From the NCBI GenBank assembly GCA_964534995.1, contig CAZHSC010000005.1, positions 17,857 through 81,856 of the forward strand: a DNA stretch of 64,000 nucleotides, in the 5' to 3' direction. The position numbers and the translations under genes are program-made. The stretch's first letter is position 1. Every line of letters starts with the position of its first letter. The notes beneath the pieces are model-generated. The model ran no database searches, was not told the DNA's origin, and saw only the letters and a list, made by a program, of their open reading frames with translations. The DNA is from an uncultured Bifidobacterium sp. GTDB lineage: Bacteria > Bacteroidota > Bacteroidia > AKYH767-A > OLB10. This document shows positions 25,553 through 50,045 of the stretch, piece after piece.

Positions 25553-26017
25553 ATGAGTTTCCTCCTCAGCATACTTGTCTTCATGGCCACCTTCTTCTTC
25601 ATGGAGTTTGTAGCCTGGTTTACCCACAAATACATCATGCATGGCTTGTTGTGGGTATTACACAAGGACCACCACCAGCCGGAGCCGGGATTTTTTGAAA
25701 AGAACGATTCTTTTTTCCTCATTTTCGCCATTCCGAGTACGATCCTGATCTGGATGGGTGTCATGAACGGCCATGACCTGCGCTTGTTTATCGGTCTGGG
25801 CATAGCGGCCTATGGACTCGCCTATTTCCTGGTGCACGATATTTTTATTCATCAGCGCTTTCGGCTTTTTCGCCGTACCAACAATATCTACATGCGCGCA
25901 CTTCGAAAAGCACATAAAGTGCACCACAAGCACCTCGGTAAAGAAGAAGGCGAATGCTTCGGGATGCTTCTCGTACCGATGAAATATTTATGGGAGGCGA
26001 AGAGGAGTTTGGAGTAG
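25553..26017 (+). CDS. crtZ: Beta-carotene hydroxylase (fatty-acid hydroxylase superfamily)
   Basis: 154 aa with histidine boxes HKYIMH, HKDHH, HDIFIH and HKVHHKH, plus TM helices. Confidence 0.8.
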   Translation: MSFLLSILVFMATFFFMEFVAWFTHKYIMHGLLWVLHKDHHQPEPGFFEKNDSFFLIFAIPSTILIWMGVMNGHDLRLFIGLGIAAYGLAYFLVHDIFIHQRFRLFRRTNNIYMRALRKAHKVHHKHLGKEEGECFGMLLVPMKYLWEAKRSLE

Positions 26018-26317
26018 AGTTGGGGATAAAACCTAAAAGGATTGAATTAAACCCATTTCTCCGTTTTATTTAATAGACCACTGAGATTTAATGGTTTATA
26101 GAACGGGAGCCATGCCCTTTTATTTTTCATTTTCAAAAAAATTTACGCACACCAGTTTATTCCCGATTAATTGCTGAATTAACACTAAAACCAAGGGTTG
26201 ACTGGTGTTTGTATTTTTATTACATTGGTGAGCAATTCTTTGTGGTGTTTCGTTTCAATTCATATTTGAATTAACGTTACCTATAAATTGGTTTATAAAC
26301 ACTGATCTCGCAATGTC

Positions 26318-27856
26318 ATGGAACATTGTAAACGCCAATCAACTGATGTTACAAATTATTTTTTCACTGTTACATCAGCGATTACTACTTATTTTACGGT
26401 GAGTTCAGCTGTTTTTATTCTTTCATTATTTTGCTTACTTCCTTTTTTTTATGTCATCAATACGGTGGAACGACGCAAAAGCATCCGGCATATTTTCACC
26501 TTTACCCTGCTTCTCTCATTATTTTTCTTTTCCTGGATAATCAATTCAGGAATACATTATACCGGTAACCATGTATACGCGGCCATCGGCGGATTTATAC
26601 TTTGTGTAGTGCTTTATTTACTTTCAATACTCCTTGTATTTATCCTCTTTTCGACAATACGAAGAACTGATAACAGAAAAGGGGGTGCCTTTGTACATGC
26701 AATTTCAATTGCCCTGGTATGGATGTGTATGGAAGAAGTGCGGTTATTATTGCTTAGCGGATTTCCATATCTCGACCTTCGAATCGGATATGCAATGGCT
26801 GATAATAATTTTACGATTCAGTGGGTTTCCGTTTTTGGAACCGGTATTCTGACTTTTTTCGTGATTTTCATCAATTGGTACCTTGCCGAAATCATTAGTA
26901 AAAGAAAGTTCTCATACGCTGATTTTACTTTGCCTGTTGTGTTTACATTATTTGTACCCGGTATTGGCTTTGCTTTCAAGAGAATTTTACATCCAACTTC
27001 CGATGAAGGAAACTTAAGTCGAATCGCTTTAATAACTCATAACCTCCCACCTGAAATTACATGGAGTCGCGACAGTGAACAAGAATTATCTGCGCTGTAT
27101 TTTAAACTTACCAGGGAGGCCATAGCTGCAAAGCCAGATTTGATTGTCTGGACGGAATCTGCGTTCCCATGGCAATACCAAAAGGGAGATTACTTGATAG
27201 GAAAAATAACAAGTGAAGGCCGTGAAGCGGGTATCGAGCAGTTACTGGGTGTAAACAGGCCGGTCGAAAATGAAACTGGAAGCATTTACAATTCCGCACT
27301 TCTGATTGATAAAAACGGATATGAGCAAACCTATGACAAACGCAGATTGCTGACCCTGATTGAATCCCCATTGTCCTTTGGAAAGGTAAACCTATTATTA
27401 CCCATGCTTGGCACATCCGGTATCCGGATTCATAAAGGAAGGGAGGAAAAAACCTTACTTACGGAAGCAGGTACTTTGGGTTTAAGAATCTGTAATGAAG
27501 CGATCTATCCTGTACAGATCCGTAATGGATTCAATCCGGAAATGCTATTAGTAATAGGCAATGACAGTTGGTTTGAAAATACCTACCTTCCATTTTTACA
27601 CTTGCTGATCTGCAGGCTGCGTGCGCTTGAAACCGGAAAAGACGTTATTGTAAACATAAGCCGGGGCTATACAGGTCTGGCATTACATGACGGGAGTTTT
27701 TCCGATCTCCATCATCAGAAAAATCCATCATTGACTTTCGTCATTGTAAGTCATCAAAAAAAATCACAGATTGCTGCTTATTATCCATATTGGTTTACTG
27801 TCACTGGGTTAATCTTTCTATCACTAATAATGATTGTAAAATCTAAATATTTTTAA
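26318..27856 (+). CDS. Lnt-family (apolipoprotein N-acyltransferase-like) membrane CN-hydrolase, divergent paralogue
   Basis: 512 aa with a multi-TM N-terminal half carrying an SGFPY motif. The CN-hydrolase domain has candidate E-K-C triad contexts VWTESAFPW, YDKRRLLTLIE and LRICNEAIYP, and there is a terminal TM helix. The gene is visibly AT-rich. Confidence 0.75.
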   Translation: MEHCKRQSTDVTNYFFTVTSAITTYFTVSSAVFILSLFCLLPFFYVINTVERRKSIRHIFTFTLLLSLFFFSWIINSGIHYTGNHVYAAIGGFILCVVLYLLSILLVFILFSTIRRTDNRKGGAFVHAISIALVWMCMEEVRLLLLSGFPYLDLRIGYAMADNNFTIQWVSVFGTGILTFFVIFINWYLAEIISKRKFSYADFTLPVVFTLFVPGIGFAFKRILHPTSDEGNLSRIALITHNLPPEITWSRDSEQELSALYFKLTREAIAAKPDLIVWTESAFPWQYQKGDYLIGKITSEGREAGIEQLLGVNRPVENETGSIYNSALLIDKNGYEQTYDKRRLLTLIESPLSFGKVNLLLPMLGTSGIRIHKGREEKTLLTEAGTLGLRICNEAIYPVQIRNGFNPEMLLVIGNDSWFENTYLPFLHLLICRLRALETGKDVIVNISRGYTGLALHDGSFSDLHHQKNPSLTFVIVSHQKKSQIAAYYPYWFTVTGLIFLSLIMIVKSKYF

Positions 27857-27858
27857 TC

Positions 27859-30800
27859 ATGAGAAATTATTACATAACCATTCTTGCAATCGTGTCCCTT
27901 TTATCACAACCTGAACTTACGCACGCTAACACCTGTTATTCGGCTTATACGCCATCTCCCACCGCTTCGCAACAAAATACCTGCAGTGGAAATACTGTAA
28001 CATTATATGCAAACGGTAATCTTAGAGATAATAGTTACTGGGCATGGTATAAAGATGGATGTGCATCAACCAGTGTTGGAACAGGCTGGAGTATTAATGT
28101 CGCTCCCACCACCACAACCACATATTATGTAAGGGGAGAAGGTGGATGCGCTCCCGGCCCAGGCCCCTGTGGGCAAATCACCATCAATGTGACTCCAGGT
28201 ATCAATGCGCCTGTTTCCAATGATGTATATCAGTGTCAACCAGATTCCGTAGTGCTGAGTGCCACGCCGACGGGCATTAACCAAACCGTAGACTGGTTTA
28301 ATGTGCCTTCAGGGGGGAGTCCTTTAACAGGAGGTTATGGGACAACAAATTTTACCACTCCCTATCTAACTACCTTTACGACTTTTTATACCCGAGCACG
28401 GGATACACTTACCGGATGTTATTCTGCAAACAGAACTGCTGTAACTGTTTATATTGGATCTGGGGTAAATAATACATGGATATCGAAAGCAAGTTTCCCT
28501 GGAACCGGCAGGTATGGTGGTGTATCCTTTGAAATTAATGGTAAAGCTTATACCGGAACAGGAATAAATTCAAATAACAGTAATACCGATGAATTCTGGG
28601 AGTATGATTTACATACAGACACATGGGCTCAAAAAGCCAATTTCGGAGGTGGCCCGCGTCATCATGGAGTGGGTTTTTCGATCGGAAACAAAGGATATCT
28701 AGGAACCGGTGAAAACGGGCCTACGTTAAGTGATTTTTGGGAATATAATCCCACTACAAATATTTGGATTCAAAAAGCCAATGTTCCTGGAAATAGCCGG
28801 GTCAGTGGTGTTGGATTCGCCAGCACGTCTAAAGGATATATAGGCCTGGGTAATAACGGGAATTACGGAGGAGTTCAGCAATGGTATAATGATTTTTGGG
28901 AGTATAATCCTCAAAGTGATTCCTGGATGAAAATGAATAATTTCCCCGGTACCACATTGGGAAGTCCGGTTTGTGGTGTCATCAATGATAAGGCCTATAT
29001 ATGTACAGGATATAACGGTAGTGCATACACTAACGGATTATGGGAATATAATATTACACTGAACTCCTGGACCGAGAAATCACCTTTGCCTTCGAATGCA
29101 CGTGGCGCTGCATTTGGTTTTTCTTTAGGTTCTAAGTTTTATCTGGGAGGAGGAACGCCTGATGGAGGGGTTACCTCCTATACAGATTTTTGGGAATATA
29201 ATCCATCTGTTTCATCGTGGACACAAAAACCGGATGTGGGTGGAACACCCAGATGTTATACCAATTACTTTTCAGGGAACGGCAAGGGTTATGTTCTTTC
29301 CGGTATTTCTTCAGGTGGGGTTAGCTATAATGAGTTATGGGAATATTCCCCGGTGCAGATGATTCAAACGCTGGATCCTTTAGTAAACAATTACTGTCCG
29401 GGAGCAGCTTTGCAAGTACCTTATAAAATTTCAGGAAATTTTGGGACCTGTTCATCCAATACCTTTACTGTTCAGCTAAGTGACGCTTCAGGTTATTTTA
29501 ACGCACCTGTTAACATTGGGTCAATAACGGCAAACACAGACAGTATCATCCCCTGTATTATTCCCACCGGAATTGCATCCGGCACCGCTTACAGGATAAG
29601 GGTGGTCAGCAGTTCTCCTGCTGTTAACGGTGCCGACAACGGAACTGACATCAATATCGGTACCAGTGTAAACTCCTGGAATCAAAAAGCAACTTTTCCG
29701 TCAACGGGCAGGATTGCACCTTCCGGTTTCGGTATCGGTAATTATGGTTACACGGGATTGGGATATGACGGCAGTAGTTTTAAAAACGACTGGTGGCAGT
29801 ACGACCCTGCAACAAATACCTGGACGCAGAAATCCGATTTCGGAGGCGCTCCCCGTGGTTACGCAGCTTCATTTGTGATCAACGGAAAGGGATATGTTGG
29901 AACCGGTTTACTGTCCTTTTCCGGAACCGATGCGGTGGACTTCTGGGAGTATGATCCGATCAGTAACCAATGGAACCAGCGAGCGAATTTTCCCGGCATA
30001 GCACGTGATGATGCGACAGGATTTACGATAGGAGCCAAAGGTTATGTTTTCGGAGGTGTGAATTCGCCGAGTTCCGTACCTTATAATGACCTTTATGAAT
30101 ACGATCCTGCGAGCAATACCTGGATCACCAAAGTTTCGTTGCCGGCAGTTGCAAGAGGCGGTGCCATCGGCTTTGGCATCAATGGGCTGGGATATGTCGG
30201 ACTTGGAGCGGACGGAAGTTCAAATTATCCCAATGACTTTTGGGCATATAATCCACAGACAAATACCTGGGCTGCAAAGGCAGGTTTTCCCGGCCCGTCA
30301 CGGCGTGAGGCTTCTTCCCTGTCAATCGGCCAGTTCGGTTATGTAAGTTGTGGCTTGAACGGAAGTACCCTCTACAAAGATTTATGGCAATACAATCCTG
30401 TATCTAACGCATGGTCACAGAAGGCGGCATTGCCGGCTCAGGCCAGAAAACTAGCTGCCTGCTTCAATGTGCAAAACACGATTTACCTTGGATTAGGAGC
30501 AACCTCCACCTCCTTGCTAAATGATATGTGGGCTTACAATGCGCAACCTGAAATAAAAACCTTGCCACTCGCCAGTATTCAGTATTGCGCCGGAGACACA
30601 TTTACTATTGGTTTTACCGCAGAAGGAACATTTGGGCAGTGCTCCACTAACACATTTATCGCCCAGTTGAGTGATGCCTATGGATATTTCAGTAATCCGG
30701 TACAGATAGGAAGTATAAACGGGACTACCGGGGGTACCATCGCATGTTCCCTTCCGGCTGGCATAAATCCTGGTCTCAAATACAGGGTCAGGGTTATCAG

Positions 30801-33800
30801 CACCGATCTGCCTGTGACCGGCAGTGATAATGGCGCCGATATCGCCATCGGCGTTGCCCCCTCTTTCTGGACTCAAAAGGCCTACGTGGGAACCGTCGGC
30901 CGGCAGGCAGCCGTGGCCTTCAGTATCGGTGGCAAAGGATATGTAGGTACCGGTTATAATAATTCTTCTTCAGCTTATCTGAAAGATTTCTGGGAATACG
31001 ATGAGGCTACAAACACCTGGACGCAAAAAGCGGATTTCGGAGGTACAGCACGTTACTATGCAATAGCCTTAGAACTGGGAGGAAAGGGATATGTTGGCGC
31101 AGGGTATGATGCTGCCAGTACTGTTAAAAACGATTTCTGGCAGTATGATCCGATCACAAATACCTGGCTCCAGAAAGCAAATATTGGTGGAAATCCACGT
31201 TGGGATGCCTTCGGTTTCGCGGTAGATGGCAAAGGTTATGCAGGCTGCGGTACCGACGGCAGCACCTGGTTACAGGATTTCTGGGAATACAACCCCGTTT
31301 CAGATACCTGGACGCAAAAAGGGAATTTCCAGGGCGGTTACCGTATGGGAGCCTGCACATTTATTGCCGGGAGTAACGCGTACGTTGCAACCGGCCAGGC
31401 GCCCTATGGTGTTTATAAAGATGATCTATGGCAGTATAATCCTGCTTCCGATACATGGACCAAGAAAAACAGTTTTGACGGCGGAGGAAGGTACCGTTCT
31501 GTTGGAATCGGAATCGGAAACAACGGATATATATTCAGCCCGGATTACAAACAACTCTGGAAATATGAATCTGCTTCGGATGCATGGATTCAGCTCCCCG
31601 ATTTTCCTGCAAGTACACGTAATCATTCTATTGGCTTTGCTATCGGTACAAAAGGCTATGTCGGCGCCGGTACTTACTCCAATGATATTTATTCATTCAA
31701 CCCCGATTTACTGGTCTCTGTAAGTTCAATAACACCCACGGGAGTATTATGTCCGGGAGCTAATATAAGCGTTTCTTATACTGCGTCCGGTGTTTTCGGA
31801 ACCTGCACCGGAAATACCTTTTACGCCGAGCTCAGTGATGAATACGGGTACTTCTATTATATTCCCCAGTATATTGGTTCCGTCAGTAGTAACGCCAGCG
31901 GTACCATAGCTTGTACCCTGCCTTCCGGTTTAATTGCGGGTGCAAATTACAAGATCCGTATTATCAGCAGTAATCCTCTGGTTTATTCAACTCCAAAACT
32001 TAATATCGCTATTGGCACTCCGGCAAAAAATATTTGGACCGAAAAGTCTGCTTTCAGTGGAAGTGCTGGCCGGAGTTCGGCTGCTTCATTCAGTATCGGC
32101 AACAAAGGGTATATCGGAACCGGGACAGATGGCACGTCTTTTTACCGTGATTTGTGGGAGTATGACCCTGCCACGGATGTGTGGACGCAGAAAGCGATTT
32201 TACCCGGCGTTTTCAGGTCTGGTGCCGTAGGCTTTTCCGTTAATAACAAAGGATACATCGGGACCGGGTATTCCAATACGGGTACGTATCTCAATGACAT
32301 GTGGGAATACGATCCCGTATCCAACACCTGGCTTCAAAAGGCGAACTTTGGAGGTGCGGCACGTATATGGGCAGTAGCCTTTACCATTGGCAGTAAAGCC
32401 TATGTGGGAACAGGAGCGGATGCTTCTTCTGCTCGTCAGGATTTTTGGGAATTTGATCCGCAGGCAAATTCATGGATTCAGAAAGCTGACTTTGCCGGTG
32501 GCATTCGCTATGGGGCTGCTGGTTTTTCAATTGAAGGCCGAGGATATCTTGGTACGGGCCATGATGGCAGTAGTGCAAAGAGTGATTTCTGGGAGTTCAA
32601 TCCCACATTAAATATCTGGACTCAAAAGACCAGCTACGGGTCGAGCTACTATGGCACAACAGGATTTTCCATTGGCCAAAGAGGTTACATTGGACTGGGT
32701 AGAAGCACCAGCAATTATTTTACGAATTATTTCCAGGAATACAACCCTTTAACCAACTCCTGGACTTCTTTTCCCTTTAAAGGAACAGGCCGTTCTTTTG
32801 CTTCCTCTTTTATAATCGGTAATACTGCATTTACCGGCTGCGGTTATGACGGCACTAACGTAAATGATTTTTATGAATTAAAAGGCGCGCCGGTCATTAC
32901 CACTTCGGCTGTCAGTATCGCCCCCTTATGCGCAGGTGGCCAGATAAATGTACCGTACATTGCCTACGGCGATTTTGGCTCCTGCAATTCCAATACCTTC
33001 ACCGCCCAGCTCAGCGATGCCAGCGGAAGTTTTGCTTCACCGGTAAATATCGGAAGCCTGGTTTCAAATACTTCCGGCTCTATCTCTGCAACCATCCCCG
33101 CCAACACGCCTAACGGCACGGGGTACCGCATCCGTGTGGTTAGCAGCAACCCTGTAGTGACGGGAAGTGATAATGGAGGTAATCTGTATGTCGGAATGAT
33201 GGCAAGTAATGTCTGGACTCAAAAATCCAACTTCGGTGGAATTTCACGTCAGGGCAGCGTATCATTTAATATAGGTAATAAAGGATATGTTGGAACCGGA
33301 ACAGATGCCTGGAACAACAACTATTACAATGATTTTTGGGAATTTGACCCCTCAACAAATACATGGACACAGAAGGCAAATTTTAGTGGTAATGCACGCT
33401 ATTCTGCGGTAGGATTTGCCATTGGTACAAAAGGTTACATTGGAACAGGACAGGATGCAACAATGGAATACAATGATTTCTGGGAATATGATCAAGCAGC
33501 TAATGTCTGGATTCAGAAATCAAATTTTGGAGGTATTCCAAGAGGAGCTGCCGTTGGTTTTGCAATTGGGACAAAAGGATATATTGGAACAGGGGGTTCT
33601 TATTTACAGGATTTCTGGGAATGGGATCAGGTTACTGATACCTGGGTTCAAAAGGCGAATTTCGGAGGAGGAGTTAGAAATAACGCCGTTGGTTTCTCTA
33701 TAGATACAAAAGGATATATTGGCACAGGTTATACAGGTGGCGGTTTTGCACAGGATTTCTGGGAATATGACCCGTACTATAATAACTGGATACAAAAAAG

Positions 33801-36800
33801 CAATTTTGGAGGAACTTCAAGAGCTTATGCTAATGGTTTTTGTATTGGAAACAAAGGCTACATGGGAATGGGATCAAATCCAGGTATATTAACAGATTTT
33901 TATGAGTGGAATCCAAAAACAAATGTTTGGACTTTGCTTGCCAGCTTTTCGGGTTACAATGCTGATATTGGGTTTGCAATTGGTCAAAAAGGTTATGTAG
34001 GAATTGGAATCACAAATTCAGGTAGTGATTTCTGGGAATACACTCCGGATTTTACTATTTCTACCGGACCGCTTAACACGCAACCGCTGTGCGCAGGAGC
34101 TTCAATAACTGTACCCTTCTCAGCCAATGGAACCTTTGTCTGCTCCAACACCTTCACCGCCCAACTCAGCGATGCCAGCGGTAGTTTTGCTGCGCCGGTT
34201 AATATCGGCTCCTTAGTTTCAAATACTTCCGGCACCATCTCCGCTACCATACCCTCCAACACGCCTAACGGTACGGGGTACCGCATCCGGGTGGTCAGCA
34301 GTAACCCCGTTGTGAATGGAAGTGATAATGGAAGTAATATATCGATAGGAACTGTTTCAACCAATAGCTGGTCGCAAAAATCAAATTTTGGCGGTAGCGC
34401 CCGTACCGGTGCATTTAGTTTCAGCATCGGCACAAAAGGATATATGGGAACCGGAAATGAAATTTCTGTTGGTGATAAAAAGGATTTTTGGGAGTACGAT
34501 CAGGTTACTGATACCTGGACACAGAAGGCGGATTTCGGGGGCATTGCACGTCGCAACGCCCGTGGTTTTAGCATAGGTGCAAAAGGATATGCCGGTACCG
34601 GAGGAGCGGATACACAGTCCGGCTCCATTTTATTGTATGATTTCTGGGAATATGACCCTGCATTAAATGTCTGGACTCAAAAGGCAAATTACGGCGGTGG
34701 AGCTGTTGCCGATGCGGTTGCTTTCAGTATAGCCGGACTGGGGTATATGGGTACCGGTTATGATGGCATCGGCGGTGGTTACAGGAATGACTTTTGGGAG
34801 TATAATCCTTTGACAAATACCTGGACCTCTAAAGCCAATTTCGGGGGAACAGCCAGGTATACTGCAGAAGGACTCAGTATTGGAAATAAGGGATATATTG
34901 GTCTGGGTTTTGACAGCAATAACCGGAAGGATTTCTGGGAGTATGATCCAACCACCAATACATGGTTGCAAAAGGCAGACTTTGGCGGATCGCCGAGGTA
35001 CCGCACCGGTTCTTTCACCATCGGCAATGAAGGTTACATAGGCGGCGGATTTGACAATGTATCCGTTTTATTCTCTGATTTCTGGAAATACAATCCTGCA
35101 TCTAATCAATGGACGCAGGTCGCCTCTTTTTCCGGTTCGACACGTCAAGCGGTAATTTGCTTCAGTTTAGGAAACAAAGGCTATATTGGAACAGGTGGTA
35201 ATGCCAATTATACACTTCGCTTTAATGATCTTTGGGAATACACACCGGCTTTTTCAATTTCTACCGGTCCGCTTAGCCTATCGCCTCTGTGTGCAGGAGC
35301 TTCAATAGCTGTACCGTTCACGTCTAATGGTACCTTTATCTGCTCCAACACCTTCACCGCCCAACTCAGCGATGCCAGCGGTAGTTTTGCATCACCGGTA
35401 AATATCGGCAGCCTGGTTTCAAATACTTCCGGCACTATCTCCGCTACCATTCCCTCCAACACACCTAACGGTACGGGATACCGCATCCGTGTGGTAAGCA
35501 CTAACCCTGTAGTGACGGGAAGTGATAATGGAAGTAATCTCAACATCGGAGGGGGTAACCCGGGTAATGGAAACGTATGGACCGGCATGGCTAACTACCC
35601 TTCATCCCAGCGTCAGAATGCTTTTTCCTTCACTATTAATGGAAAAGGTTATGTAGGCACCGGTTATTGTTGCGGGAGTCCGCTTAATGATTTGTGGGAG
35701 TACGACGCTTTAGCTGACGCATGGGTTCAGAAAGCTAATTTCCCCGGCAGTGCCCGTACTGCTGCTGTGGGATTCAGTATAAATGGAAAAGGGTATGCCG
35801 GTACCGGTGGGTATGGAAGTTATAACAATGATTTTTACGAATACGATCCTGTAAATAATACCTGGGTACAGAAGGCCAGTTTCCCCGGCGGAGCGCGGGG
35901 TGGAGCTGTTGGTTTCAGCCTGAATAATAAAGGATATATAGGAACCGGAGAAAATGCTTCCAGTACTATCTTTTACAGTGATCTGTGGGAATACGATCCC
36001 GTAATGAATACCTGGATTCAGAAAGCCTCGTTCGGAGTGCACCCACGCGCATTCGCCTTTAGTTTTACCATAGGAAATAGAGCATACGTCGGTGGTGGGG
36101 AAGCATCAGGAAATTCCTGGGATGATTTCTGGGAGTATGATCCTTTAGCGGATTCATGGATACAGAAGGCGGCTTTCGGTGGCGGCGTAAGATATGGGGT
36201 CACTGGATTTTCACTCGGTTCTTTCGGATATGCCTGTTGCGGATATAATTCCAATTCACATAATGATTGCTGGATGTATAACCCCGCTTCCAACCAATGG
36301 ATACAACGCCCTTCCCTTCCCGGTTCCGTCCGCACTTATGCAACAGGCTTTACCATTGAATATAATGCTTATATCGGTGCAGGGGCAAATGGTGCCTGGC
36401 CCGGCGATTACTTCCGGTATACACCTGACTTGCTGGTAAGCTCTCCGCTTACAAACAACAGCTTATGCCAGAACAGTATGTTCGATGTAAGCTATACTTC
36501 CCCGGGAGTTGAATTCCTGCCCTGTAACACTTTTACGGCACAACTCAGCGATGCCAATGGTAGTTTTGCATCACCTGTGAACATTGGATCTCTTGTTTCT
36601 CCGGATTCATCGGGCATTATTCCAGTAATAGTTCCTAACGGAACACCGCCCGGTAATTCCTATAGAATTCGTGTCATCAGCAACCATCCGGCTATCACGG
36701 GAACCGACAACGGAAGCAATATCAGCATCGGAGCCGATACTGCCTTAGTTTATTACCGGGATTTTGATAACGACGGTTTCGGAGATCCAAATAATAACAA

Positions 36801-37275
36801 ATCTGCCTGTACATCGCCATCAGGTTACGTTACGAATAACACCGATTGCAACGATAACAGTGCATTTATCCACCCTGGCACAATTGATATATGCGGTAAC
36901 AATATCGATGAAGATTGCAGCGGCACTGATTCAATTTGTTCCTCAAATATTGTACTTCTCGTTCGTTTATTTATTGAAGGATATTATATTGGTAATTCGC
37001 TGATGTCACCTGTACTGTTTAACAATGGGCTGAGTATAAATACAAATGCTTGTGATAGCGTGATTATAGAATTGCGAGAATCCCTGAGCCCATTCGGTAC
37101 GTTTATTTCGACAGGAACAATACTTCAAACCAATGGTTATGCAAACATTTTGCTGCCTGCCACTATGATTGGAAGCACTTACTATATAGTAGTGAAACAA
37201 AGAAACTCCATCGAAACCTGGAGTAAATATCCTGTCACCCTCACGGGTGGAACCAATATTTTTACTTTTAACTGA
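27859..37275 (+). CDS. Giant (3138-aa) secreted protein: N-terminal Ig-like domains, 7 x (six-bladed Kelch propeller + ~100-aa Ig-like module), MopE-like metal-binding motif, C-terminal beta-sandwich-like module; no T9SS CTD
   Basis: One uninterrupted ORF with a signal peptide (…LTHANTC). I counted 42 blade motifs of the form (N/D)DFWEYDPxTNTWTQKAxFGG..R...GFxIGxKGYxGTG. Seven TFTAQLSDASGSFASPVNIG...YRIRVVS modules occur with a period of about 1.19 kb. The YYRDFDNDGFGDP...CNDNSAFIHPG...CGNNIDEDCSG motif is present near the C-terminus. Confidence 0.9.
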   Translation: MRNYYITILAIVSLLSQPELTHANTCYSAYTPSPTASQQNTCSGNTVTLYANGNLRDNSYWAWYKDGCASTSVGTGWSINVAPTTTTTYYVRGEGGCAPGPGPCGQITINVTPGINAPVSNDVYQCQPDSVVLSATPTGINQTVDWFNVPSGGSPLTGGYGTTNFTTPYLTTFTTFYTRARDTLTGCYSANRTAVTVYIGSGVNNTWISKASFPGTGRYGGVSFEINGKAYTGTGINSNNSNTDEFWEYDLHTDTWAQKANFGGGPRHHGVGFSIGNKGYLGTGENGPTLSDFWEYNPTTNIWIQKANVPGNSRVSGVGFASTSKGYIGLGNNGNYGGVQQWYNDFWEYNPQSDSWMKMNNFPGTTLGSPVCGVINDKAYICTGYNGSAYTNGLWEYNITLNSWTEKSPLPSNARGAAFGFSLGSKFYLGGGTPDGGVTSYTDFWEYNPSVSSWTQKPDVGGTPRCYTNYFSGNGKGYVLSGISSGGVSYNELWEYSPVQMIQTLDPLVNNYCPGAALQVPYKISGNFGTCSSNTFTVQLSDASGYFNAPVNIGSITANTDSIIPCIIPTGIASGTAYRIRVVSSSPAVNGADNGTDINIGTSVNSWNQKATFPSTGRIAPSGFGIGNYGYTGLGYDGSSFKNDWWQYDPATNTWTQKSDFGGAPRGYAASFVINGKGYVGTGLLSFSGTDAVDFWEYDPISNQWNQRANFPGIARDDATGFTIGAKGYVFGGVNSPSSVPYNDLYEYDPASNTWITKVSLPAVARGGAIGFGINGLGYVGLGADGSSNYPNDFWAYNPQTNTWAAKAGFPGPSRREASSLSIGQFGYVSCGLNGSTLYKDLWQYNPVSNAWSQKAALPAQARKLAACFNVQNTIYLGLGATSTSLLNDMWAYNAQPEIKTLPLASIQYCAGDTFTIGFTAEGTFGQCSTNTFIAQLSDAYGYFSNPVQIGSINGTTGGTIACSLPAGINPGLKYRVRVISTDLPVTGSDNGADIAIGVAPSFWTQKAYVGTVGRQAAVAFSIGGKGYVGTGYNNSSSAYLKDFWEYDEATNTWTQKADFGGTARYYAIALELGGKGYVGAGYDAASTVKNDFWQYDPITNTWLQKANIGGNPRWDAFGFAVDGKGYAGCGTDGSTWLQDFWEYNPVSDTWTQKGNFQGGYRMGACTFIAGSNAYVATGQAPYGVYKDDLWQYNPASDTWTKKNSFDGGGRYRSVGIGIGNNGYIFSPDYKQLWKYESASDAWIQLPDFPASTRNHSIGFAIGTKGYVGAGTYSNDIYSFNPDLLVSVSSITPTGVLCPGANISVSYTASGVFGTCTGNTFYAELSDEYGYFYYIPQYIGSVSSNASGTIACTLPSGLIAGANYKIRIISSNPLVYSTPKLNIAIGTPAKNIWTEKSAFSGSAGRSSAASFSIGNKGYIGTGTDGTSFYRDLWEYDPATDVWTQKAILPGVFRSGAVGFSVNNKGYIGTGYSNTGTYLNDMWEYDPVSNTWLQKANFGGAARIWAVAFTIGSKAYVGTGADASSARQDFWEFDPQANSWIQKADFAGGIRYGAAGFSIEGRGYLGTGHDGSSAKSDFWEFNPTLNIWTQKTSYGSSYYGTTGFSIGQRGYIGLGRSTSNYFTNYFQEYNPLTNSWTSFPFKGTGRSFASSFIIGNTAFTGCGYDGTNVNDFYELKGAPVITTSAVSIAPLCAGGQINVPYIAYGDFGSCNSNTFTAQLSDASGSFASPVNIGSLVSNTSGSISATIPANTPNGTGYRIRVVSSNPVVTGSDNGGNLYVGMMASNVWTQKSNFGGISRQGSVSFNIGNKGYVGTGTDAWNNNYYNDFWEFDPSTNTWTQKANFSGNARYSAVGFAIGTKGYIGTGQDATMEYNDFWEYDQAANVWIQKSNFGGIPRGAAVGFAIGTKGYIGTGGSYLQDFWEWDQVTDTWVQKANFGGGVRNNAVGFSIDTKGYIGTGYTGGGFAQDFWEYDPYYNNWIQKSNFGGTSRAYANGFCIGNKGYMGMGSNPGILTDFYEWNPKTNVWTLLASFSGYNADIGFAIGQKGYVGIGITNSGSDFWEYTPDFTISTGPLNTQPLCAGASITVPFSANGTFVCSNTFTAQLSDASGSFAAPVNIGSLVSNTSGTISATIPSNTPNGTGYRIRVVSSNPVVNGSDNGSNISIGTVSTNSWSQKSNFGGSARTGAFSFSIGTKGYMGTGNEISVGDKKDFWEYDQVTDTWTQKADFGGIARRNARGFSIGAKGYAGTGGADTQSGSILLYDFWEYDPALNVWTQKANYGGGAVADAVAFSIAGLGYMGTGYDGIGGGYRNDFWEYNPLTNTWTSKANFGGTARYTAEGLSIGNKGYIGLGFDSNNRKDFWEYDPTTNTWLQKADFGGSPRYRTGSFTIGNEGYIGGGFDNVSVLFSDFWKYNPASNQWTQVASFSGSTRQAVICFSLGNKGYIGTGGNANYTLRFNDLWEYTPAFSISTGPLSLSPLCAGASIAVPFTSNGTFICSNTFTAQLSDASGSFASPVNIGSLVSNTSGTISATIPSNTPNGTGYRIRVVSTNPVVTGSDNGSNLNIGGGNPGNGNVWTGMANYPSSQRQNAFSFTINGKGYVGTGYCCGSPLNDLWEYDALADAWVQKANFPGSARTAAVGFSINGKGYAGTGGYGSYNNDFYEYDPVNNTWVQKASFPGGARGGAVGFSLNNKGYIGTGENASSTIFYSDLWEYDPVMNTWIQKASFGVHPRAFAFSFTIGNRAYVGGGEASGNSWDDFWEYDPLADSWIQKAAFGGGVRYGVTGFSLGSFGYACCGYNSNSHNDCWMYNPASNQWIQRPSLPGSVRTYATGFTIEYNAYIGAGANGAWPGDYFRYTPDLLVSSPLTNNSLCQNSMFDVSYTSPGVEFLPCNTFTAQLSDANGSFASPVNIGSLVSPDSSGIIPVIVPNGTPPGNSYRIRVISNHPAITGTDNGSNISIGADTALVYYRDFDNDGFGDPNNNKSACTSPSGYVTNNTDCNDNSAFIHPGTIDICGNNIDEDCSGTDSICSSNIVLLVRLFIEGYYIGNSLMSPVLFNNGLSINTNACDSVIIELRESLSPFGTFISTGTILQTNGYANILLPATMIGSTYYIVVKQRNSIETWSKYPVTLTGGTNIFTFN
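32990..35540 (+). repeat. High-identity intragenic DNA repeats inside the giant gene (copies at ~32990-33185, 34030-34340 and 35230-35540)
   Basis: Aligned by eye, the copies at 34030-34340 and 35230-35540 are offset by exactly 1200 nt with roughly nine in ten bases identical. The copy at 32990-33185 shares the 190-nt TFTAQLSDASGSF core. Confidence 0.8.
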
Positions 37276-37366
37276 TGTAACATCAATCCGCAATTTATTG
37301 AAACATACATTCCTTGAGTCCGGGCGTACCAATAATTCATCTCCTCATGGATTTAACCTTTAGAAG

Positions 37367-37409
37367 CTCCGGATCAGACCCCACAGTCGCTGATATGTCT
37401 GATCCGGAG
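37367..37409. terminator. 13-bp perfect-stem hairpin between convergent genes, a possible bidirectional terminator
   Basis: CTCCGGATCAGAC-N17-GTCTGATCCGGAG, located 92 nt after the giant gene stop and 47 nt after the EamA stop. There is no clear U-tract. Confidence 0.45.
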
Positions 37410-37455
37410 TTCCGAAGCACTAAAGATTCATATGGAAAGACAGGCCACTTTCGTT

Positions 37456-38355
37456 TCAGGGTTTAACCTTCAGCATCCCCCTGTTCACTAAAAACACGCC
37501 GATGATGGTGACGGCCATGGCGGCTATTGATTTTTCACTGATGCTTTCATTGAGCAACAGCCAGCCCAGGAATACTGCCACAATGGGATTCACATACGCG
37601 TAAACGGACACCTGCTGGGCCGGAAGGTAACGCAAGGCATATACGAAAAGACTATATCCCAGCACTGAGCCTGCTATCACCAGGTAGATCACCGCCCACC
37701 AGCCGCTCCAGTCGCCCGGCAGCGACTTCCATTCGTCTCTGTAAATACCCATCAGCGTGGTGATGAGGCCGCATAAAAGCATCTGCCAGGCTCCGGTAAG
37801 CACCGGCGACATCTGTACCGGGTATTTTTTCATGTGTACACTTCCCAGGGAGCCATTGATGACGCCCAGCACCGACAGAAACAGACCACCCGCGTAGTTT
37901 GTATTTCCAAGCAGAAAAATATGATCGTAAAAGATAATCCATTGCCCCAGCAATCCCAGGAAGATCCCCGCCAGGGCCATGAGCGGGGTTTTCTCGGTGG
38001 GGTTCCACAAACGCGTAATGATCACTATCCATAGCGGGAAGGCAGTATTGATCAGGGCCGCGAGGCCGCTGGGGACGCTCTGCTCGGCCAGCACCAGAAA
38101 AAGGTTGCCGCCAATGAAGATAAAAATACCACTAACCATCATGCGTTTCAGGTCCCGCCTGCCGGGAAGCAAGCGCTCTTTGCCGGGAATAAATAACAAG
38201 AGGATCAGCAGGCCGGAAATAACAAATCGCAGCCCCGAAAACAGAAAAGGCGGAAACCTGCTGTCCATACCCATCTTAATGGCCAGGTAGGTGGTTCCCC
38301 ACAGGAAACAAATGGCTGCCAGCGCGGCAAAAGGTTTCCAGTGAATACCATTCAT
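37456..38355 (-). CDS. EamA/DMT-family transporter
   Basis: 299 aa, about 10 TM helices in two EamA-like halves. Confidence 0.85.
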   Translation of the reverse strand: MNGIHWKPFAALAAICFLWGTTYLAIKMGMDSRFPPFLFSGLRFVISGLLILLLFIPGKERLLPGRRDLKRMMVSGIFIFIGGNLFLVLAEQSVPSGLAALINTAFPLWIVIITRLWNPTEKTPLMALAGIFLGLLGQWIIFYDHIFLLGNTNYAGGLFLSVLGVINGSLGSVHMKKYPVQMSPVLTGAWQMLLCGLITTLMGIYRDEWKSLPGDWSGWWAVIYLVIAGSVLGYSLFVYALRYLPAQQVSVYAYVNPIVAVFLGWLLLNESISEKSIAAMAVTIIGVFLVNRGMLKVKP

Positions 38356-41032: not shown

Positions 41033-44000
41033 TTATAGCTTCACCAGCTTCAGGGTGCGGCTGCCGGATTCGGTAAGCAGTCGCAGGAGATAAACACCTT
41101 GCGGCGACTGGCGCAAGTCGATCAGGGCGCGATAGGAATTACCTGCATTAACGTCCCGGCTCATCACCACACGGCCTTCTATATCTGTGAGGATATAGGA
41201 AACATTCTTCGCGGTGACCCCATTCAGTTCGAGGTTGAATAAACCGGCGGAAGGATTGGGATAAACCGCCACATTGCCGAGTTTATCGGGCTGATCCAGT
41301 CCGGTGGTAGTGCTTATGTTTACATTATCAACATAGAGGTTATTTCCATACCCGTTAATGTTCACAAACTTCAGCAGCACACCGGAGCCTATCCAGTTGT
41401 TCAGGTTAACGGTATCTTTTCTCCAATCAGTGGCATTGGCCGGAATGAATTCAGTAGTCAATGTGCCCACTGTGGCCAGGCCAAGGCCATCTTTCTGATA
41501 TCCCGCGGGCTGCCAGGTGTTGCCGCAATCGGTAGAGATGTCTACACGCAGGGTATCGGTATAGGTAGCACTGTACTGGGCATAGGCCACATCAAAAGTC
41601 ATGATGGCGTCGATGGCATTTACCAGTGAAACCTCCAGGGTAACCAGTCCGTCTTCAGCACCTACATTGTTGTAATCGAAATTATCCACAAAAGAGCAGG
41701 CGGTGAGGTTGCCGTTTGCTCCTGTTACTGCCGCTGCTTCTGCCCAGGTGATGGCGGCACCGGCATCATCAATGCTCCAGGAGGCAGGAGGGAAGGTTCC
41801 GCTCTGGAAGTCTTCACTAAACGGTGTTACTGCCGCCGCCAGAATCGTAATGAGCGAGGTCTGATTAACGGTACCACCTCCAAAACCATTGGTGGCGGTC
41901 AGCTCTACATCATAGGTTCCTGTCGCGTTGAAAACTACCTGCGGATTTTGGGAAGTAGCGGAGGTGCCATTGACAAAACTCACACTGGCAGGCGTGAAGG
42001 TCCACTGCCAGCTGTTGGGTGAGTTCAGGCTCTGGTCGGTGAAGGTGAATACCTTTCCGGTACAGCCGCTGGTGGCATTCACCACAAAGGCGGGAACAGG
42101 AGGAGCGGAGGACTCGATAATGTTGATATCATCCAGAGCGATGTCTGATTCGAAGTTATTACCGGTAACCGCGCGGAAGCGTACATTGATCACGTCACCG
42201 GCCCAGGGCATCATGTTCAATACCGCCTGCTGCCAGCTGTTACCCTGGTTGCCGGTAATGGCCGGGATCACATCGTTCACCCATCCTCCCTGCGTAAATA
42301 CATCAACATGTAATTCACCCATGTCTCCGCCATACATATGATACCAGAATGTCATCTGCGGAGCTGAGGCGGCACTGAGGTCGATGCAGGGAGTAATCAG
42401 GTTGGAGTTTTTGTTGAAACATGCCGATGACTCCAGGTACACATAGTTTCCGGCAGCAGTACCTAAGGTGTGGTCCACATCGGGTCCGGTTCCTGCCGAA
42501 GGAGTGGATCCTTCATTGACACGGAAGTCAATATCGTCCTGATCATTGTTTACTTCGTTGATCCAGCCATTGCCCACAGCACAAACCGTTACTTCACAAT
42601 CGCTGGCAGTACTGCAAAGGGTGGAAGCTTCAAAATCCTCAATGAATGGCAGGGTGGCCAGGGTTCCGGCAATCACATTCGTTACGGAGAGCGAAGAGTC
42701 GTTGTACACATTGAGATCCCCGGTGAGGCTGAGCCATGTCTGAAGATTATAGGTGCCGGCCACCGACAAGTCGAGGGTAGCGGTAAAGGTAAAGAGCTGA
42801 GAGGCGCCCGGGGCAAGGGTACCTGTAAAGGTTTCCGTAACTACGGCGCCGCCGTTCAAAGAGAAATTAACGGGGATGTTGGAGACAGGGTTTTGTCCCC
42901 TGTTCTCAATCAGCACCCCTACAGGAACCGCTGAGTTATCATGACAATCCTGCATAGTTCCGTTACCGGGGCTGGCAATGGCGGAGAGCTGCGCATCAAC
43001 GGCGAGCGGGCAGGAGAAAGTACCGGGCGCCTTATAAATCGCGTTGGCTCTGCGTCCGTTATTTCCCTCCGGCGTAATGGCGCTCACGCTGAACCAGTAT
43101 TCCAGATTGGGGTTGGTATTGGCTATCACAATGCTGTTGGTGGTGCTGGTACCCACTGCTTCCATGTATCTGGCGCCAAGCATGTAGGCCGTATAGCCGA
43201 CAGCGCCATTTACGGCATTCCACACCAAACGGATAGAATCCGGGCAGGCCCAGTCAACGGTGATGCCGGTGGGCACGCCGATGATGGCCAGTGAAGTATC
43301 GCTTTCATCACTGAAGCCGTTGCGGCTTACACGCAGTTTGACGGCTCCGGAAACGGTAGCCGGTACGGACCAGTTATATTGCTGAACGTTTTGTGCCACA
43401 CTGGCGGCGATGACATTCCAGGTAGCTCCGTTATCGGTAGAATAGTCGAGCGAGTAGGTGCCCAGGTTACGCTGACCATCCCACCTCAGCACTTCCGTTT
43501 CGCCGGGAACAAAGCCTTCGCCGCCGTTGGGATAGGTCATGGTAACTTCTTCAGAGCGGAATTCCCATACCAGGTAATAGCGCTGGCCTGTTGACGGTAT
43601 CGCATGACCGTTAATGCTCACGGTATAGGTGCCGGCCGCCGGATTATCCAGCGTTACCTGCTCCATGTTATTGAGGGAGTCAACACCTCTGGTGGCTGGT
43701 GCGCTCAGGCTGGCTACCAAAGGGGTTGGATCGAGTATCCAGGGGTTCCAGGCTGTACTGGAAGGATCCGTAACCGTCATGTTCAGGTTGTTCACCAGGG
43801 ACACGGCTGAGGCGGGCGATCCTCCAACATCCGACCAGTACACCATCACCCGCATCTCAGTTACTCCGGCAGGAACGGTGATGTTGTGCGTATTGATGAC
43901 TCCCTGAGTAATGCTGTCCGTCAGATAACGGTTATCTTCAAGGGTACGTACCGCGCGCAAAGCATTCACGCGTCCCCAGCCATAGATAAAATCAGGTCCG

Positions 44001-45889: not shown

Positions 45890-48800
45890 TCAGGGTTTAG
45901 ATACAGAAATAAAGTTGGTAATATTATTATCCATGATGGACTGATCCACTATATCCACCGTGCCGTCACCACTGAGGTCGGTCACCACATACCCTCCCAT
46001 AAAATTAAAGATAGCATTATCTACCGGCGACTGGTCGAGCAGGTCAATGGTTTCATCCTGTGGCCGCAGGTCACCGCTGTAAAAGGCAAATACCCCCGGC
46101 AGCAGCTGACGCATATTGGCGCCATAGGCCTGTGCGGCGGAAGTGGTGAAATTGTAAGAAGTACTGGCATTTAAGAGTACCGGCACCGCACTCCAGGTTT
46201 CAATGCTGTTACGGTGATTGACGGCAATGTAATAGCTGCTGCCTGTTAGCGCTGATGAATATTGACAGGTTACCGCACCCGCGGTGCTTACCACGCCCGT
46301 ATCGGCCGCCACCAGTGTATAGGGGCTGGATGCCTGATGTAGTTTCACAATCACGGTATCGGCTTCCAGCGGATTGGTACCGGCGGAGGAATTCAGCAGG
46401 GCCGGCACCATGCCCCCGCTTCCGTTGTGCAGTCCCTCCAGGAGTAAATTCAGGGTCAGCGCGGCGGAGGAGGAAGTTCCGGTAAATTCAACATTATCAA
46501 TATAAAGATTATTGCCATAACGGTTGATATTTACAAACCTGATGGTGATGTTATTCCCCACCCATGCGCTTAGATCAATCGTATCCTTTCTCCATTGTGC
46601 TGTTGAGGTTGGTGCAAATGAAGATGTGACGGTACCAGCAGTAGCCAGTGTTAATCCGCCTTTCAGATAACCTGTCGGTTGCCATGTGGCGCCGCAATCC
46701 GTTGAAACATCCACCCTCATGGTGTCGGAATAAGCGGAGCTGTAGCGGGCATAAGCCACATCAAATGTCATTTTTGCTGTGGAAGCCGGAGTCAGGGAAA
46801 CCACATAGGTGAGCAATTTATCTTCCGCGGCGGGATTGTTATAGCTGTAGTTGTTGATAAAGGCGCAACTGGTGCTGCTTCCGGTAGCTCCTGTAATCCC
46901 CGTTGCCAATTGCCAGGTGTAGGCGCCTCCTGCGCTCTGTAGGCTCCAGGCTGTTGGCGGAAAGCCCCCGCTCTGGAAGGTTTCCGTTACCGGATAATTG
47001 CTCGCACTGAAAACGGAAGAAACCACGGTCAGGGAATCATTGTAAAGGTTCATATCGCCGGCATAGGAAGTATAGGTCTGCAGGGAATACGTACCGGCAG
47101 ACGAATAATTAAGCGTAGCGCTGAAGGTGAACAGTTGAGTGGCACCCGGGTTCAGGGGCCCTGCAAATATTTCAGTAACTACGGCGCCGCCATTGAGACG
47201 ATACTTTACCGGGATATTGCTGAGTACGTTTTGTCCCACATTCTCCAGCGTCACACTCACCGGTACCGCAGCAATATTCTGACATACGGAAAGGTTGCCT
47301 GCATTGGGGCTTGACACTGACGCTATTTTCACGTCGAAGGGCAATGGGCAGTTGGAGGTGCCGGGCGCTTTGTAAATGGCATAGGCCCTGCGCCCTTTAT
47401 TGCCCGCGGGAGTATTGGCACATACACTGAACCAGTATTCAAGAGAAGGGTTGGTGCCGGTAACCACAAAATTTGTTGTGGTGGTGGTACCAATGGCTTC
47501 CATGTATTTATTTCCAAGTTTATAGACCGTATAACCGGAAGCACCGCTCACAGCATTCCAGGTGAGCCGGATGGAATCGGGGCAGGCCCATGACACCGCC
47601 AATCCTCCGGGTACACCAATGATGGCCAGCGCGGTATCGCTCATATCTGTATAGGCACCACGGGTTACCCTCACTTTTACTTCGCCTGAAACATTATTGG
47701 GTACGGTCCAGCTGTACTGCTGTACGTTTTGCGCCACCGAAACCGCGATAGGCAGCCAGGTAGTCCCGTTATTCACCGTATATTCGAGGGCATAGGTGCC
47801 CAGGTTGCGCTGCCCGTCCCACCTCAGCACTTCCGTTTCGCCGGGAACAAAACCTTCGCCGCCGTTGGGATAGGTCATGGTGACGGCATCCGACCGGAAC
47901 TCCCATACCAGGTAATAGCGCTGACCTGTTGACGGTAAGGCATACCCGTTAATGGTGACTGTATAGGCACCCGCCGCCGGGTTGTCGAGCGTGACCTGCT
48001 CCATGTTGTTGAGGCTGTCAACACCGCGGACGGCAGGGGCGGTAAGGTTGGCTACCACAGGTGTGGGATCCAGGATCCAGGGGTTCCATACCGCCGCGGA
48101 AGGATCGGTAAGGGTCATGTTGATATTGTTCACAAGCGCAGGTGCCGCGACGGGGGAACCTCCCACATCCGACCAGTACACCATCACCCGTAACTGGCGC
48201 GTACCTGAGGGCACATTGATGATATGCGTCTTGCTGTTGCCCTGGGTCACGCTGTCAGTAAGGTAGCGGTTGGCCTCCAGCGTTTGCAGCGCGCGCAGGG
48301 CGTTCACCCTACCCCAGCCGTATGTATAATCAGGGCCCGCGTTGCCGATATCTTCCGCACTGTTTAGCAGACAGGCTTTGATGAGCGCGGCGGGAGGATT
48401 GGCGGCGCCGGTCAGGCTTTTATAGGCCTGATAGAGCTGCGCGAAAATGCCCGCAACACCGGGAGAAGCGGCGGAAGTACCGCCCCCTACCTGGTAGGTA
48501 TTGTTTTCATTTGTACTGAGCTGGTTTCTTCCATTGGCACAGATGTCCGGTTTAATACGACCGTCGGAGGCAGGGCCGCGGCTGCTGGTAGGATCGAGTA
48601 CTTCCAGCTCATCGAGGTTTCCGCAGGCCACTACATTTTTCCCCTGCTTATAGCCGCCGGTAATATTTCCCCATCCCGCGCCGGCACCATAGCTGCAATT
48701 GCTGCTCTGGCTGTTACCCGCCGAAAACACAAACTGAATCTGGGGATTGTTGTACAATAGCTGATCGCCGAACTGGGTGTCGGAAGTGTACTGGTTACAG

Positions 48801-49777: not shown

Positions 49778-50045
49778 ATATAATTATACGGTATTTACAA
49801 GGAATGGTTAATGGTATCTGAAGGAAATACATCCGATAGAATCAATTGATGCATCATTTTCCTTCCTTAACAAAGTTATCAAAAGCACTTTTCCCCTGCA
49901 AATAATTTTACAGGATGGCACTTTCCATGTTTTCTCAGAATGGATTATGTCCGCAAGTATATCTTCATACCCGGGAAATCGGGGAGTTGCCGACTTCATT
50001 TTTATTATCCGCTCCGAATACTGAACTTTGCCTTGCACCATTGCC

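Follow-up and report, generated by a model that had tools for sequence, protein, structure and literature searches.

The window analyzed here is a stretch of 64,000 nucleotides (nt) from contig CAZHSC010000005.1 (positions 17,857 to 81,856) of a Bacteroidota metagenome-assembled genome (MAG; assembly GCA_964534995.1). It carries on its forward strand a very long gene for a Kelch-repeat protein of 3,138 amino acids (aa) (P0001; hereafter, the giant; Table 1). We read the giant, with moderate confidence, as an exported array of seven old and distinct Kelch propellers that is likely a hetero-multivalent binder at the cell surface or in the extracellular space, that arrived as part of an insert, and in which gene conversion has acted on the immunoglobulin (Ig)-like modules 4 to 6.

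Seven propeller-plus-Ig units on one chain

The giant is encoded by a single uninterrupted open reading frame (ORF; 9,417 nt open) and is thus the product of a real, intact 9.4-kb gene. Scored over its whole length against Pfam, it matched PF24681 (435.6 bits; cut-off, 50), Kelch_1 (PF01344; 264.8 bits; cut-off, 20.1), Kelch_3 (251.2 bits), and Kelch_4 (191.4 bits), with Ig_7 (PF19081; 77.8 bits versus a cut-off of 27.3) covering two stretches within aa 1 to 205. For a Kelch propeller we took blades of ~44 to 56 aa with four strands each, six of which close the ring. A blade hidden Markov model (HMM) iterated on the giant located exactly 42 Kelch blades of 41 to 52 aa, which fall by sixes into seven units, with no blade beyond these. 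Cutting the protein after each DNG..I.IG motif correspondingly yielded seven units of 385 to 401 aa that can be aligned over their full length. Behind each of the propellers (K1 to K7) stands one Ig-like module of ~100 aa (Ig1 to Ig7, at aa 499-601, 896-998, 1283-1386, 1677-1779, 2064-2164, 2464-2564, and 2857-2958), with the core NTFTAQLSDASGSF...YRIRVVS. The AQLSD cores of these modules begin at nt 29470, 30661, 31825, 33004, 34159, 35359, and 36538, i.e., at a spacing of 1,155 to 1,200 nt. Earlier positions for the module cores, read from the letters of the DNA, were off by ~10 nt at most, and the exact 1,200-nt offset then noted between modules 5 and 6 was recovered (34023 versus 35223).

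The AlphaFold2 model of the segment Ig5-K6-Ig6 (aa 2064 to 2564), computed after aligning six segments of this kind from the giant itself, is all-beta, with a mean predicted local distance difference test score (pLDDT) of 87.5. Its top Foldseek matches in the PDB are the six-bladed Kelch domains 6n3h, 6hrl, and 5yy8 (target-normalized template modeling [TM] scores of 0.84 to 0.87). Modeling of a propeller with its Ig-like module, which had been proposed as a check, therefore returned the six-bladed Kelch fold. Together with the 7 x 6 blades and the Pfam matches, it bears out the original prediction of seven six-bladed Kelch propellers and Ig-like spacers on one chain. Overall, the giant is best described from its predicted features as a Sec-exported, all-beta, beads-on-a-string chain. 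The eukaryotic Kelch substrate receptors NS1-BP (6n3h/5yy8), KLHL17 (6hrl), and Keap1 (1zgk) are likewise built of six four-stranded blades and superimpose with root mean square deviations of 2.3 to 3.8 Å, although sequence identity to the giant is only 17 to 25%. These receptors, whose top-face loops hold peptide ligands, are single intracellular propellers on BTB/BACK domains, whereas the giant would expose seven extracellular propellers with Ig-like spacers.

The Ig-like module found no PDB relative by sequence search. Kre9_KNH-like PF10342 reached 43.3 bits when summed over the giant (cut-off, 24.6), single modules reaching only ~21 bits, slightly short of the cut-off, and four of the seven matching at an E value of ≤1. 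The module trails propellers in P0003, P0004, P0007, P0008, P0016, P0024, P0027, and P0029, and it also occurs in tandem arrays free of Kelch repeats (e.g., P0078, P0082, P0098, and P0108). Such a distribution among sequences points to a widespread mobile module.

An old, ordered array within a common class of Bacteroidota proteins

A search of 5.8 billion proteins retrieved 245 large relatives of the giant at an E value of ≤0.001, the best of which, P0003, is 50% identical over 53% of the length. None of 18 genomes of the same genus and 12 of the same order encodes an orthologue of the giant; these genomes hold only proteins with one to three propellers. An orthologue was reached through P0268, a relative of the gene upstream of the giant, which belongs to the apolipoprotein N-acyltransferase (Lnt) family. 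It is an ORF of at least 1,761 aa on the Logan contig L021 (7.3 kb), 63% identical to and collinear with aa 9 to 1756 of the giant, and the contig stops in Ig4. Each of K1 to K4 and Ig1 to Ig4 on L021 best matches its positional counterpart, with identities of 60 to 68% for the propellers (versus 36 to 46% off the diagonal) and 54 to 68% for the Ig-like modules. Between the two orthologues, the proportion of differences is 0.78 at synonymous sites (pS) and 0.24 at nonsynonymous sites (pN), and 4-fold degenerate sites are 31% identical, as expected of random sequence. Synonymous sites are thus saturated while pN is low, and therefore the split is old and purifying selection has acted on the protein.

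The propellers have kept their individuality over this time. At the 126 propeller positions where the seven paralogues differ freely, identity is 15% among these paralogues and 47% between the orthologues. K7 groups with P0003_K4 (100/99) and K2 with P0003_K1 (98/96) in a tree of the propellers, and in the module tree Ig7 pairs with P0003_Ig5. As judged from these comparisons, the seven propellers are most probably old, differentiated paralogues, each of which keeps unit-specific residues across species, and the array appears ancient, ordered, and not labile, at least for units 1 to 4. It had been suggested that the number of modules could vary between strains. An orthologue with saturated synonymous sites that retains units 1 to 4 in order, each nearest to its positional counterpart, argues against such copy-number instability. 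The comparison of module counts in orthologues proposed along with that suggestion stands for units 1 to 4, which are in register on L021, and does not extend to units 5 to 7, which lie beyond the contig end.

The giant belongs to a common, uncharacterized class of Bacteroidota multi-Kelch surface proteins. Other giants of this phylum, known from annotation only (e.g., P0016 from a Cytophagaceae MAG, P0036 from a Flavobacteriales MAG, and P0095 from Flaviaesturariibacter amylovorans), similarly combine several six-bladed propellers on one exported chain with small Ig- or PKD-like separators. Most of them carry the type A sorting signal PF18962, in contrast to P0001. The combination of an N-terminal Ig_7 pair, seven units, and an Lnt-family partner was seen in P0001 and on contig L021 only. 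Elsewhere in the same genome, outside the window (G000:C4:22453-25305, minus strand), we found a 951-aa paralogue in which one or more Kelch propellers are joined to a single Ig-like module and to the C-terminal module described below. It has counterparts of 936 to 992 aa in the genus mates G001, G003, G005, G008, G011, and G012 and may be the resident member of the family.

Sequence exchange confined to Ig4, Ig5, and Ig6

Propeller pairs of the giant share 48 to 57% of their DNA sequence and 37 to 52% of their aa. Ig1 to Ig3 are 48 to 53% identical in DNA to every other Ig-like module, in agreement with the earlier remark that modules 1 to 3 are far more diverged. Ig4, Ig5, and Ig6 are instead mutually 73 to 85% identical in DNA and 73 to 86% in aa, with 85% between Ig5 and Ig6 over 300 nt and 73 to 77% for the pairs 4/5 and 4/6 in a codon alignment. 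A 74-nt core is 89 to 93% identical among modules 4 to 6 and 80% identical in module 7. Synonymous distances (dS; Nei-Gojobori) are 0.44 for Ig5/Ig6, 0.76 for Ig4/Ig6, and 0.97 for Ig4/Ig5, and pS is 0.33 to 0.54 within this group versus 0.75 to 0.88 (saturated) for all other Ig and propeller pairs tested. Identity in a sliding window rises sharply where the Ig-like module begins, and Ig4 to Ig6 group as a single clade when 39 modules of nine proteins are placed in a tree. The low dS among these three modules, the saturation elsewhere, and the single clade therefore indicate sequence exchange among them. The pattern is that expected of old intragenic gene conversion over tracts of ~200 to 300 nt, which would have involved those modules alone and would not be recent.

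The resemblance of Ig4 to Ig6 might alternatively reflect strong constraint on the protein or a retained family consensus, with no gene conversion. The three modules are indeed close to the module consensus of P0003 and P0029, and Ig4 of the orthologue is 63 to 68% identical to Ig4, Ig5, and Ig6 alike. Constraint of this kind does not explain why synonymous sites are similar too, nor the two longest exact repeats in the gene (52 and 30 nt) or the jump in identity at the module start; moreover, Ig4 to Ig6 resemble one another (73 to 86% in aa) more than Ig4 resembles its own orthologue (68%). We consider an origin by constraint quite unlikely and retain gene conversion among the three modules. 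The original prediction of homogenization thus holds as real exchange among Ig4 to Ig6, not as homogenization of whole units or as a recent event. Its description of modules 4 to 6 as sharing near-identical DNA was right about their similarity and overstated its degree, the longest exact repeat being 52 nt.

The same figure bears on the soundness of the assembly. With a longest exact internal repeat of merely 52 nt, misassembly driven by repeats is unlikely, contrary to the warning of collapse or expansion that had been issued for this gene. Admittedly, the source genome (3.57 Mb; 99.6% complete) is a MAG of 140 contigs, the gene is internally repetitive, and units 5 to 7 have no independent copy, and one could thus suppose that the count of seven is an artifact of collapse, expansion, or a chimera formed through internal repeats. 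However, the propellers at 48 to 57% identity and the best repeat at 85% over 300 nt are too dissimilar to confuse a k-mer assembler, the frame stays open throughout with a perfect periodicity of six blades plus Ig, and an independent assembly, contig L021, gives units 1 to 4 in unchanged order. An artifactual unit count is therefore highly improbable in our judgment.

A putative hetero-multivalent binder

We propose that the giant would act as a cell-surface or extracellular hetero-multivalent binder, either an adhesin or a lectin-like scaffold. Through variable loops on the top face, its seven different propellers would recognize several distinct ligands, or distinct epitopes on a polymer or on the surface of another cell, and the Ig-like modules would serve as spacers. 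An ancient, ordered array of seven distinct propellers under purifying selection points to seven specificities rather than to simple avidity, and sequence comparison thus favors seven sites that differ over seven that are equivalent. Several points weigh against this proposal. Conservation of unit-specific residues shows purifying selection, not distinct ligands; units 5 to 7 lack independent confirmation, the orthologous contig ending in Ig4; the giant has no recognizable type A, B, or C signal of a type IX secretion system (T9SS) by which to cross the outer membrane; and models of NanM-type mutarotases match at sub-threshold scores, so that an enzymatic role is conceivable for some propellers.

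This last point can be taken further, to propellers that are enzymes, i.e., NanM-like sugar mutarotases or galactose oxidase-like domains working on extracellular glycans. Several homologues are named "N-acetylneuraminic acid mutarotase" by the Joint Genome Institute (JGI), and the NCBIfam models TIGR03548, NF010730, and TIGR03547 do give matches. Nevertheless, none of the three reaches its cut-off, even as a sum over the seven propellers (222.9 versus 243.2, 215.8 versus 416, and 183.9 versus 256.35 bits, respectively), the residues that stay invariant from unit to unit are W, G, Y, D, and R, which are structural in Kelch blades, and the nearest solved folds are protein-binding Kelch domains. 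Nor do we know of a precedent for a single chain that repeats one simple enzyme in seven diverged copies. An array of enzymes is thus very unlikely, and binding remains the function that we favor. The sialic acid mutarotase NanM (YjhT) is, like the giant, a bacterial, exported protein with a six-bladed Kelch propeller, and its family models match the giant in part. It is periplasmic and has a single propeller, as opposed to the seven of the giant, which scores under every curated cut-off and bears no sign of catalysis.

Few unexplained surface proteins of environmental Bacteroidota, including activated-sludge and freshwater lineages like that of this genome, are as large or as common as the multi-Kelch giants, none of which has, to our knowledge, a known ligand. 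The propeller-plus-Ig units (~400 aa), which fold confidently in prediction, offer defined pieces for expression and screening. Very large, exported, repetitive, all-beta surface proteins devoted to binding have a counterpart in SprB and RemA of Flavobacterium johnsoniae (PMC10202324). The giant shares with these Bacteroidota proteins its size, repetitiveness, all-beta composition, and export. It differs from them in its building blocks, which in SprB and RemA are SprB repeats and a lectin domain instead of Kelch propellers, and in lacking their type B or type A C-terminal domains (CTDs).

A C-terminal module outside the known T9SS signals

No type A CTD (TIGR04183/PF18962) was matched in the whole giant, nor in its last 186 aa at an E value of ≤10, and the locus is missing from the 150 type A matches that a census of the genome listed (150 of 327 first-look candidates were scored). 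A type B CTD (TIGR04131/PF13585) was likewise missing from the last 186 aa at an E value of ≤10 in Pfam and NCBIfam, despite the N-terminal Ig_7 pair. The type C sorting domain of the T9SS is of the ChiA type (PMC10202324). Its model NF033708 had no NCBIfam match in the giant and gave genome-wide only sub-threshold cross-matches, none at the giant and several coinciding with listed type A CTDs. The C-terminal module of the giant was accordingly set aside as a candidate type A, B, or C signal, as no family matched. At least 150 ORFs of the 3.57-Mb genome end in a type A CTD, a very high load of type A cargo. Four ORFs of the window, all on the minus strand, end in a TIGR04183 domain scoring above the cut-off (41039-41266, 51413-51640, 59042-59272, and 61787-61990). 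Many homologous multi-Kelch giants carry PF18962 and are therefore exported cargo.

The module itself (the last ~108 aa) is predicted by AlphaFold2 as a confident beta-sandwich (pLDDT, 89). It matched no Pfam or NCBIfam family at an E value of ≤10, Foldseek found no significant PDB fold match (generic beta-sandwiches only; TM score of ≤0.52), and a profile search of the PDB gave only a weak match to T4 gp10. It is nevertheless abundant. Eighteen large ORFs of this genome contain it, with a tail of 0 to 7 aa behind it in 12 of the 17 complete ones and an 83-aa dockerin/EF-hand-like tail in two. Searching 1.84 billion cluster representatives returned 7,207 matches at an E value of ≤0.001. Among the best 150 of these, the module is followed by 0 to 3 aa in 47 and by 81 to 98 aa in 92, and in three of the four relatives whose tails were scanned the long tail matched Dockerin_1, from weakly to above the cut-off. 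The motif RN[SG][IVL]ETWSK occurs at at least 574 places in GTDB species representatives, and nearly all of the 80 places listed are titled as MAGs of Bacteroidota lineages. On this evidence the module probably represents a large unnamed family located at or near the C terminus, of which the giant has the short form, and which is apparently restricted to Bacteroidota. Within this genome it appears to be mutually exclusive with the known T9SS signals. It may serve as a sorting signal, as an anchor, or, like an X-module, to support a dockerin. No conserved small partner gene accompanies the 18 module genes, whose neighbors encode other large secreted proteins. The module was also seen in MAGs titled "Bifidobacterium" (two: L032 and L047) and "Chitinophaga pinensis" (two), bins that are probably mislabeled. 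The window itself holds, at 45893-49783 on the minus strand, a 1,297-aa ORF with the long form, whose 83-aa dockerin/EF-hand-like tail ends in ...ISVSKP.

The long form is reminiscent of the XDoc (X-module plus dockerin) dyads of cellulosomal scaffoldins, as in about two-thirds of the family the module is followed by a tail of 81 to 98 aa with two dockerin/EF-hand-like repeats, and there is a weak, non-significant fold resemblance of the module to 4u3s_B (TM score, 0.44). The giant differs from XDoc in having the short form, with no dockerin-like tail, and no cohesin partner was identified.

A two-gene insert with an Lnt-family partner

The Lnt-like gene stops 2 nt ahead of the ATG of the giant, and the pair is bordered by core genes for an FA_hydroxylase and EamA. 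In the genus mates G012 and G010, these core genes (88% and 77 to 78% aa identity, respectively) are separated by ~140 to 220 bp that hold only palindromic repeats, and neither the Lnt-like gene nor the giant is present in 18 genus mates. The FA_hydroxylase and EamA genes are adjacent in the nearest mates, which makes the 11.4 kb with the Lnt-like gene and the giant an insert. The giant would thus have entered the genome jointly with a divergent Lnt-family gene that is, by its sequence, catalytically intact. No signatures of mobile elements (integrase, tRNA, or direct repeats) were seen at the insert borders. The repeats at the empty sites (L017, 17835-17975, and L018, 1451-1675, from G012 and G010) are tandem palindromic units, GTGACAGGTCGTGACCTGTCA... 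and GGGACACGTGAGACGTGTG, resembling repetitive extragenic palindromic (REP) elements; in the present genome the insert takes their place.

Residues E280, K341, and C392 of the Lnt-like protein, the Glu-Lys-Cys triad of CN hydrolases, are invariant in six relatives, and we take them to match E267, K335, and C387 of Escherichia coli Lnt. Its closest relative, P0268 (44 to 45% identity), is encoded on L021, where 11 nt separate its gene from that of the orthologous giant downstream. The gene is the only Lnt homologue of the genome, and none was found in the 18 genus mates at an E value of ≤1e-20; the genus therefore seems to be devoid of a canonical Lnt. A 30%-identical Lnt, P0269, is encoded ~1.8 kb from lspA (Peptidase_A8), with one unassigned gene between, in a housekeeping-like setting with no Kelch neighbor. 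Lnt adjacency was dismissed as a general trait of Kelch giants, as P0003 is preceded by a DUF4907 gene (L001, 3715-4185, overlapping its start by 4 nt), which looks like a conserved partner of another kind, and P0029 by nothing relevant. Two scans of JGI metagenome contigs, one with an alignment of the Lnt-like pair and the other with the N terminus of the giant, yielded no further cassettes.

The signal peptide of the giant looks like a type I sequence and not like that of a lipoprotein. By inspection, the lipobox [LVI][ASTVI][GAS]C is absent from both orthologues (...SLLSQPELTHANT-C in the giant and ...FLGRVADAST-C on L021), and the predicted cleavage site, at the same place in both, reads THA|NTC in the giant and ADA|STC (RVADA|STC) in the orthologue. 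A direct relation of enzyme and substrate between the Lnt-like protein and the giant is therefore unproven and, if the signal peptide is read this way, unlikely. Still, the two genes could form a functional pair in which the acyltransferase would anchor the giant by attaching lipid to it or to a partner, and would so offset the missing T9SS signal. The short distances (2 nt here and 11 nt in the only close relative) despite saturated synonymous sites, the joint insertion into a genus with no Lnt homologue in 18 members, the invariant E-K-C residues, and a Cys that both orthologues keep three residues past the predicted cleavage site (NTC and STC) would all suit such a pair. They are countered by the ANT-C and AST-C contexts, which follow a charged c-region and an AXA-type site as for signal peptidase I, with no lipobox; by the occurrence of the pairing in two cassettes only, i.e., one independent comparison; by the Kelch giants P0003 and P0029, which have no Lnt neighbor; by P0269, an Lnt with no Kelch neighbor and close to lspA; and by the other 17 proteins with the C-terminal module, which have no Lnt of their own because the genome has only one. 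On balance, we rate a functional pair as rather unlikely. A wider version, in which the whole insert is a self-contained surface-display cassette whose C-terminal module is an undescribed sorting or anchoring signal and whose Lnt-family enzyme lipid-modifies the giant or its anchor, bypassing the three known T9SS classes, is a doubtful proposition in our view. The Lnt pairing in an otherwise Lnt-less genus and the unnamed C-terminal family are nonetheless leads on how Bacteroidota place proteins at their surface.

TABLE 1 Features of the Kelch giant gene and its surroundings (positions in the window)
Feature	Position	Strand	Basis or remark
FA_hydroxylase, core gene bordering insert	25553-26017		
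Two-gene insert (Lnt-family gene + Kelch giant), 11.4 kb	26018..37455	.	Empty sites in genus mates
Lnt-like gene (apolipoprotein N-acyltransferase family), divergent, 512 aa	26318..27856	+	TIGR00546, 184 bits vs 132.9
Kelch giant ORF P0001	27859..37275	+	3138 aa
Sec signal peptide, aa 1-23, MRNYYITILAIVSLLSQPELTHA	27859..27927	+	Read from sequence; probable type I cleavage after THA
Two Ig_7 (CHU_C-associated Ig-like) domains	27928..28458	+	PF19081, E = 7.7e-22, two stretches
Unit 1: K1 (aa 201-498) + Ig1 (499-601)	28459..29661	+	Orthologous unit 67%/55% identical
Unit 2: K2 + Ig2	29662..30852	+	Orthologue 68% identical; K2 pairs with P0003_K1
Unit 3: K3 + Ig3	30853..32016	+	Unit alignment, blade HMM, orthologue comparison
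Unit 4: K4 + Ig4	32017..33195	+	Unit alignment, blade HMM, orthologue comparison
Probable homogenized tract, Ig4 copy	32868..33167	+	Repeat family D5/D6; dS 0.97 vs Ig5, 0.76 vs Ig6
Unit 5: K5 + Ig5	33196..34350	+	Unit alignment, blade HMM
Probable homogenized tract, Ig5 copy	34023..34322	+	Repeat family, dS
Unit 6: K6 + Ig6	34351..35550	+	Modeled together with Ig5 (AlphaFold2, Foldseek)
Probable homogenized tract, Ig6 copy	35223..35522	+	85% identical to Ig5 copy, offset 1200 nt, dS 0.44
Unit 7: K7 + Ig7	35551..36732	+	K7 pairs with P0003_K4; Ig7 with P0003_Ig5
Cys-rich MopE-type putative metal-binding motif	36844..36930	+	PF11617, 36.5 bits vs cut-off 27
C-terminal beta-sandwich module, aa 3031-3138, reaching stop codon	36949..37272	+	AlphaFold2; no Pfam/NCBIfam family
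Perfect 11-bp hairpin, 17-nt loop, CCGGATCAGAC...GTCTGATCCGG	37369..37407	.	Between convergent giant and EamA
EamA, core gene bordering insert	37456-38355	-	

Promoter and terminator scans gave nothing informative; they rest on a sigma-70 consensus, which is unsuited to Bacteroidota. The hairpin between the giant and EamA genes, which may be a terminator, was not listed by the terminator scan because it has no T run.

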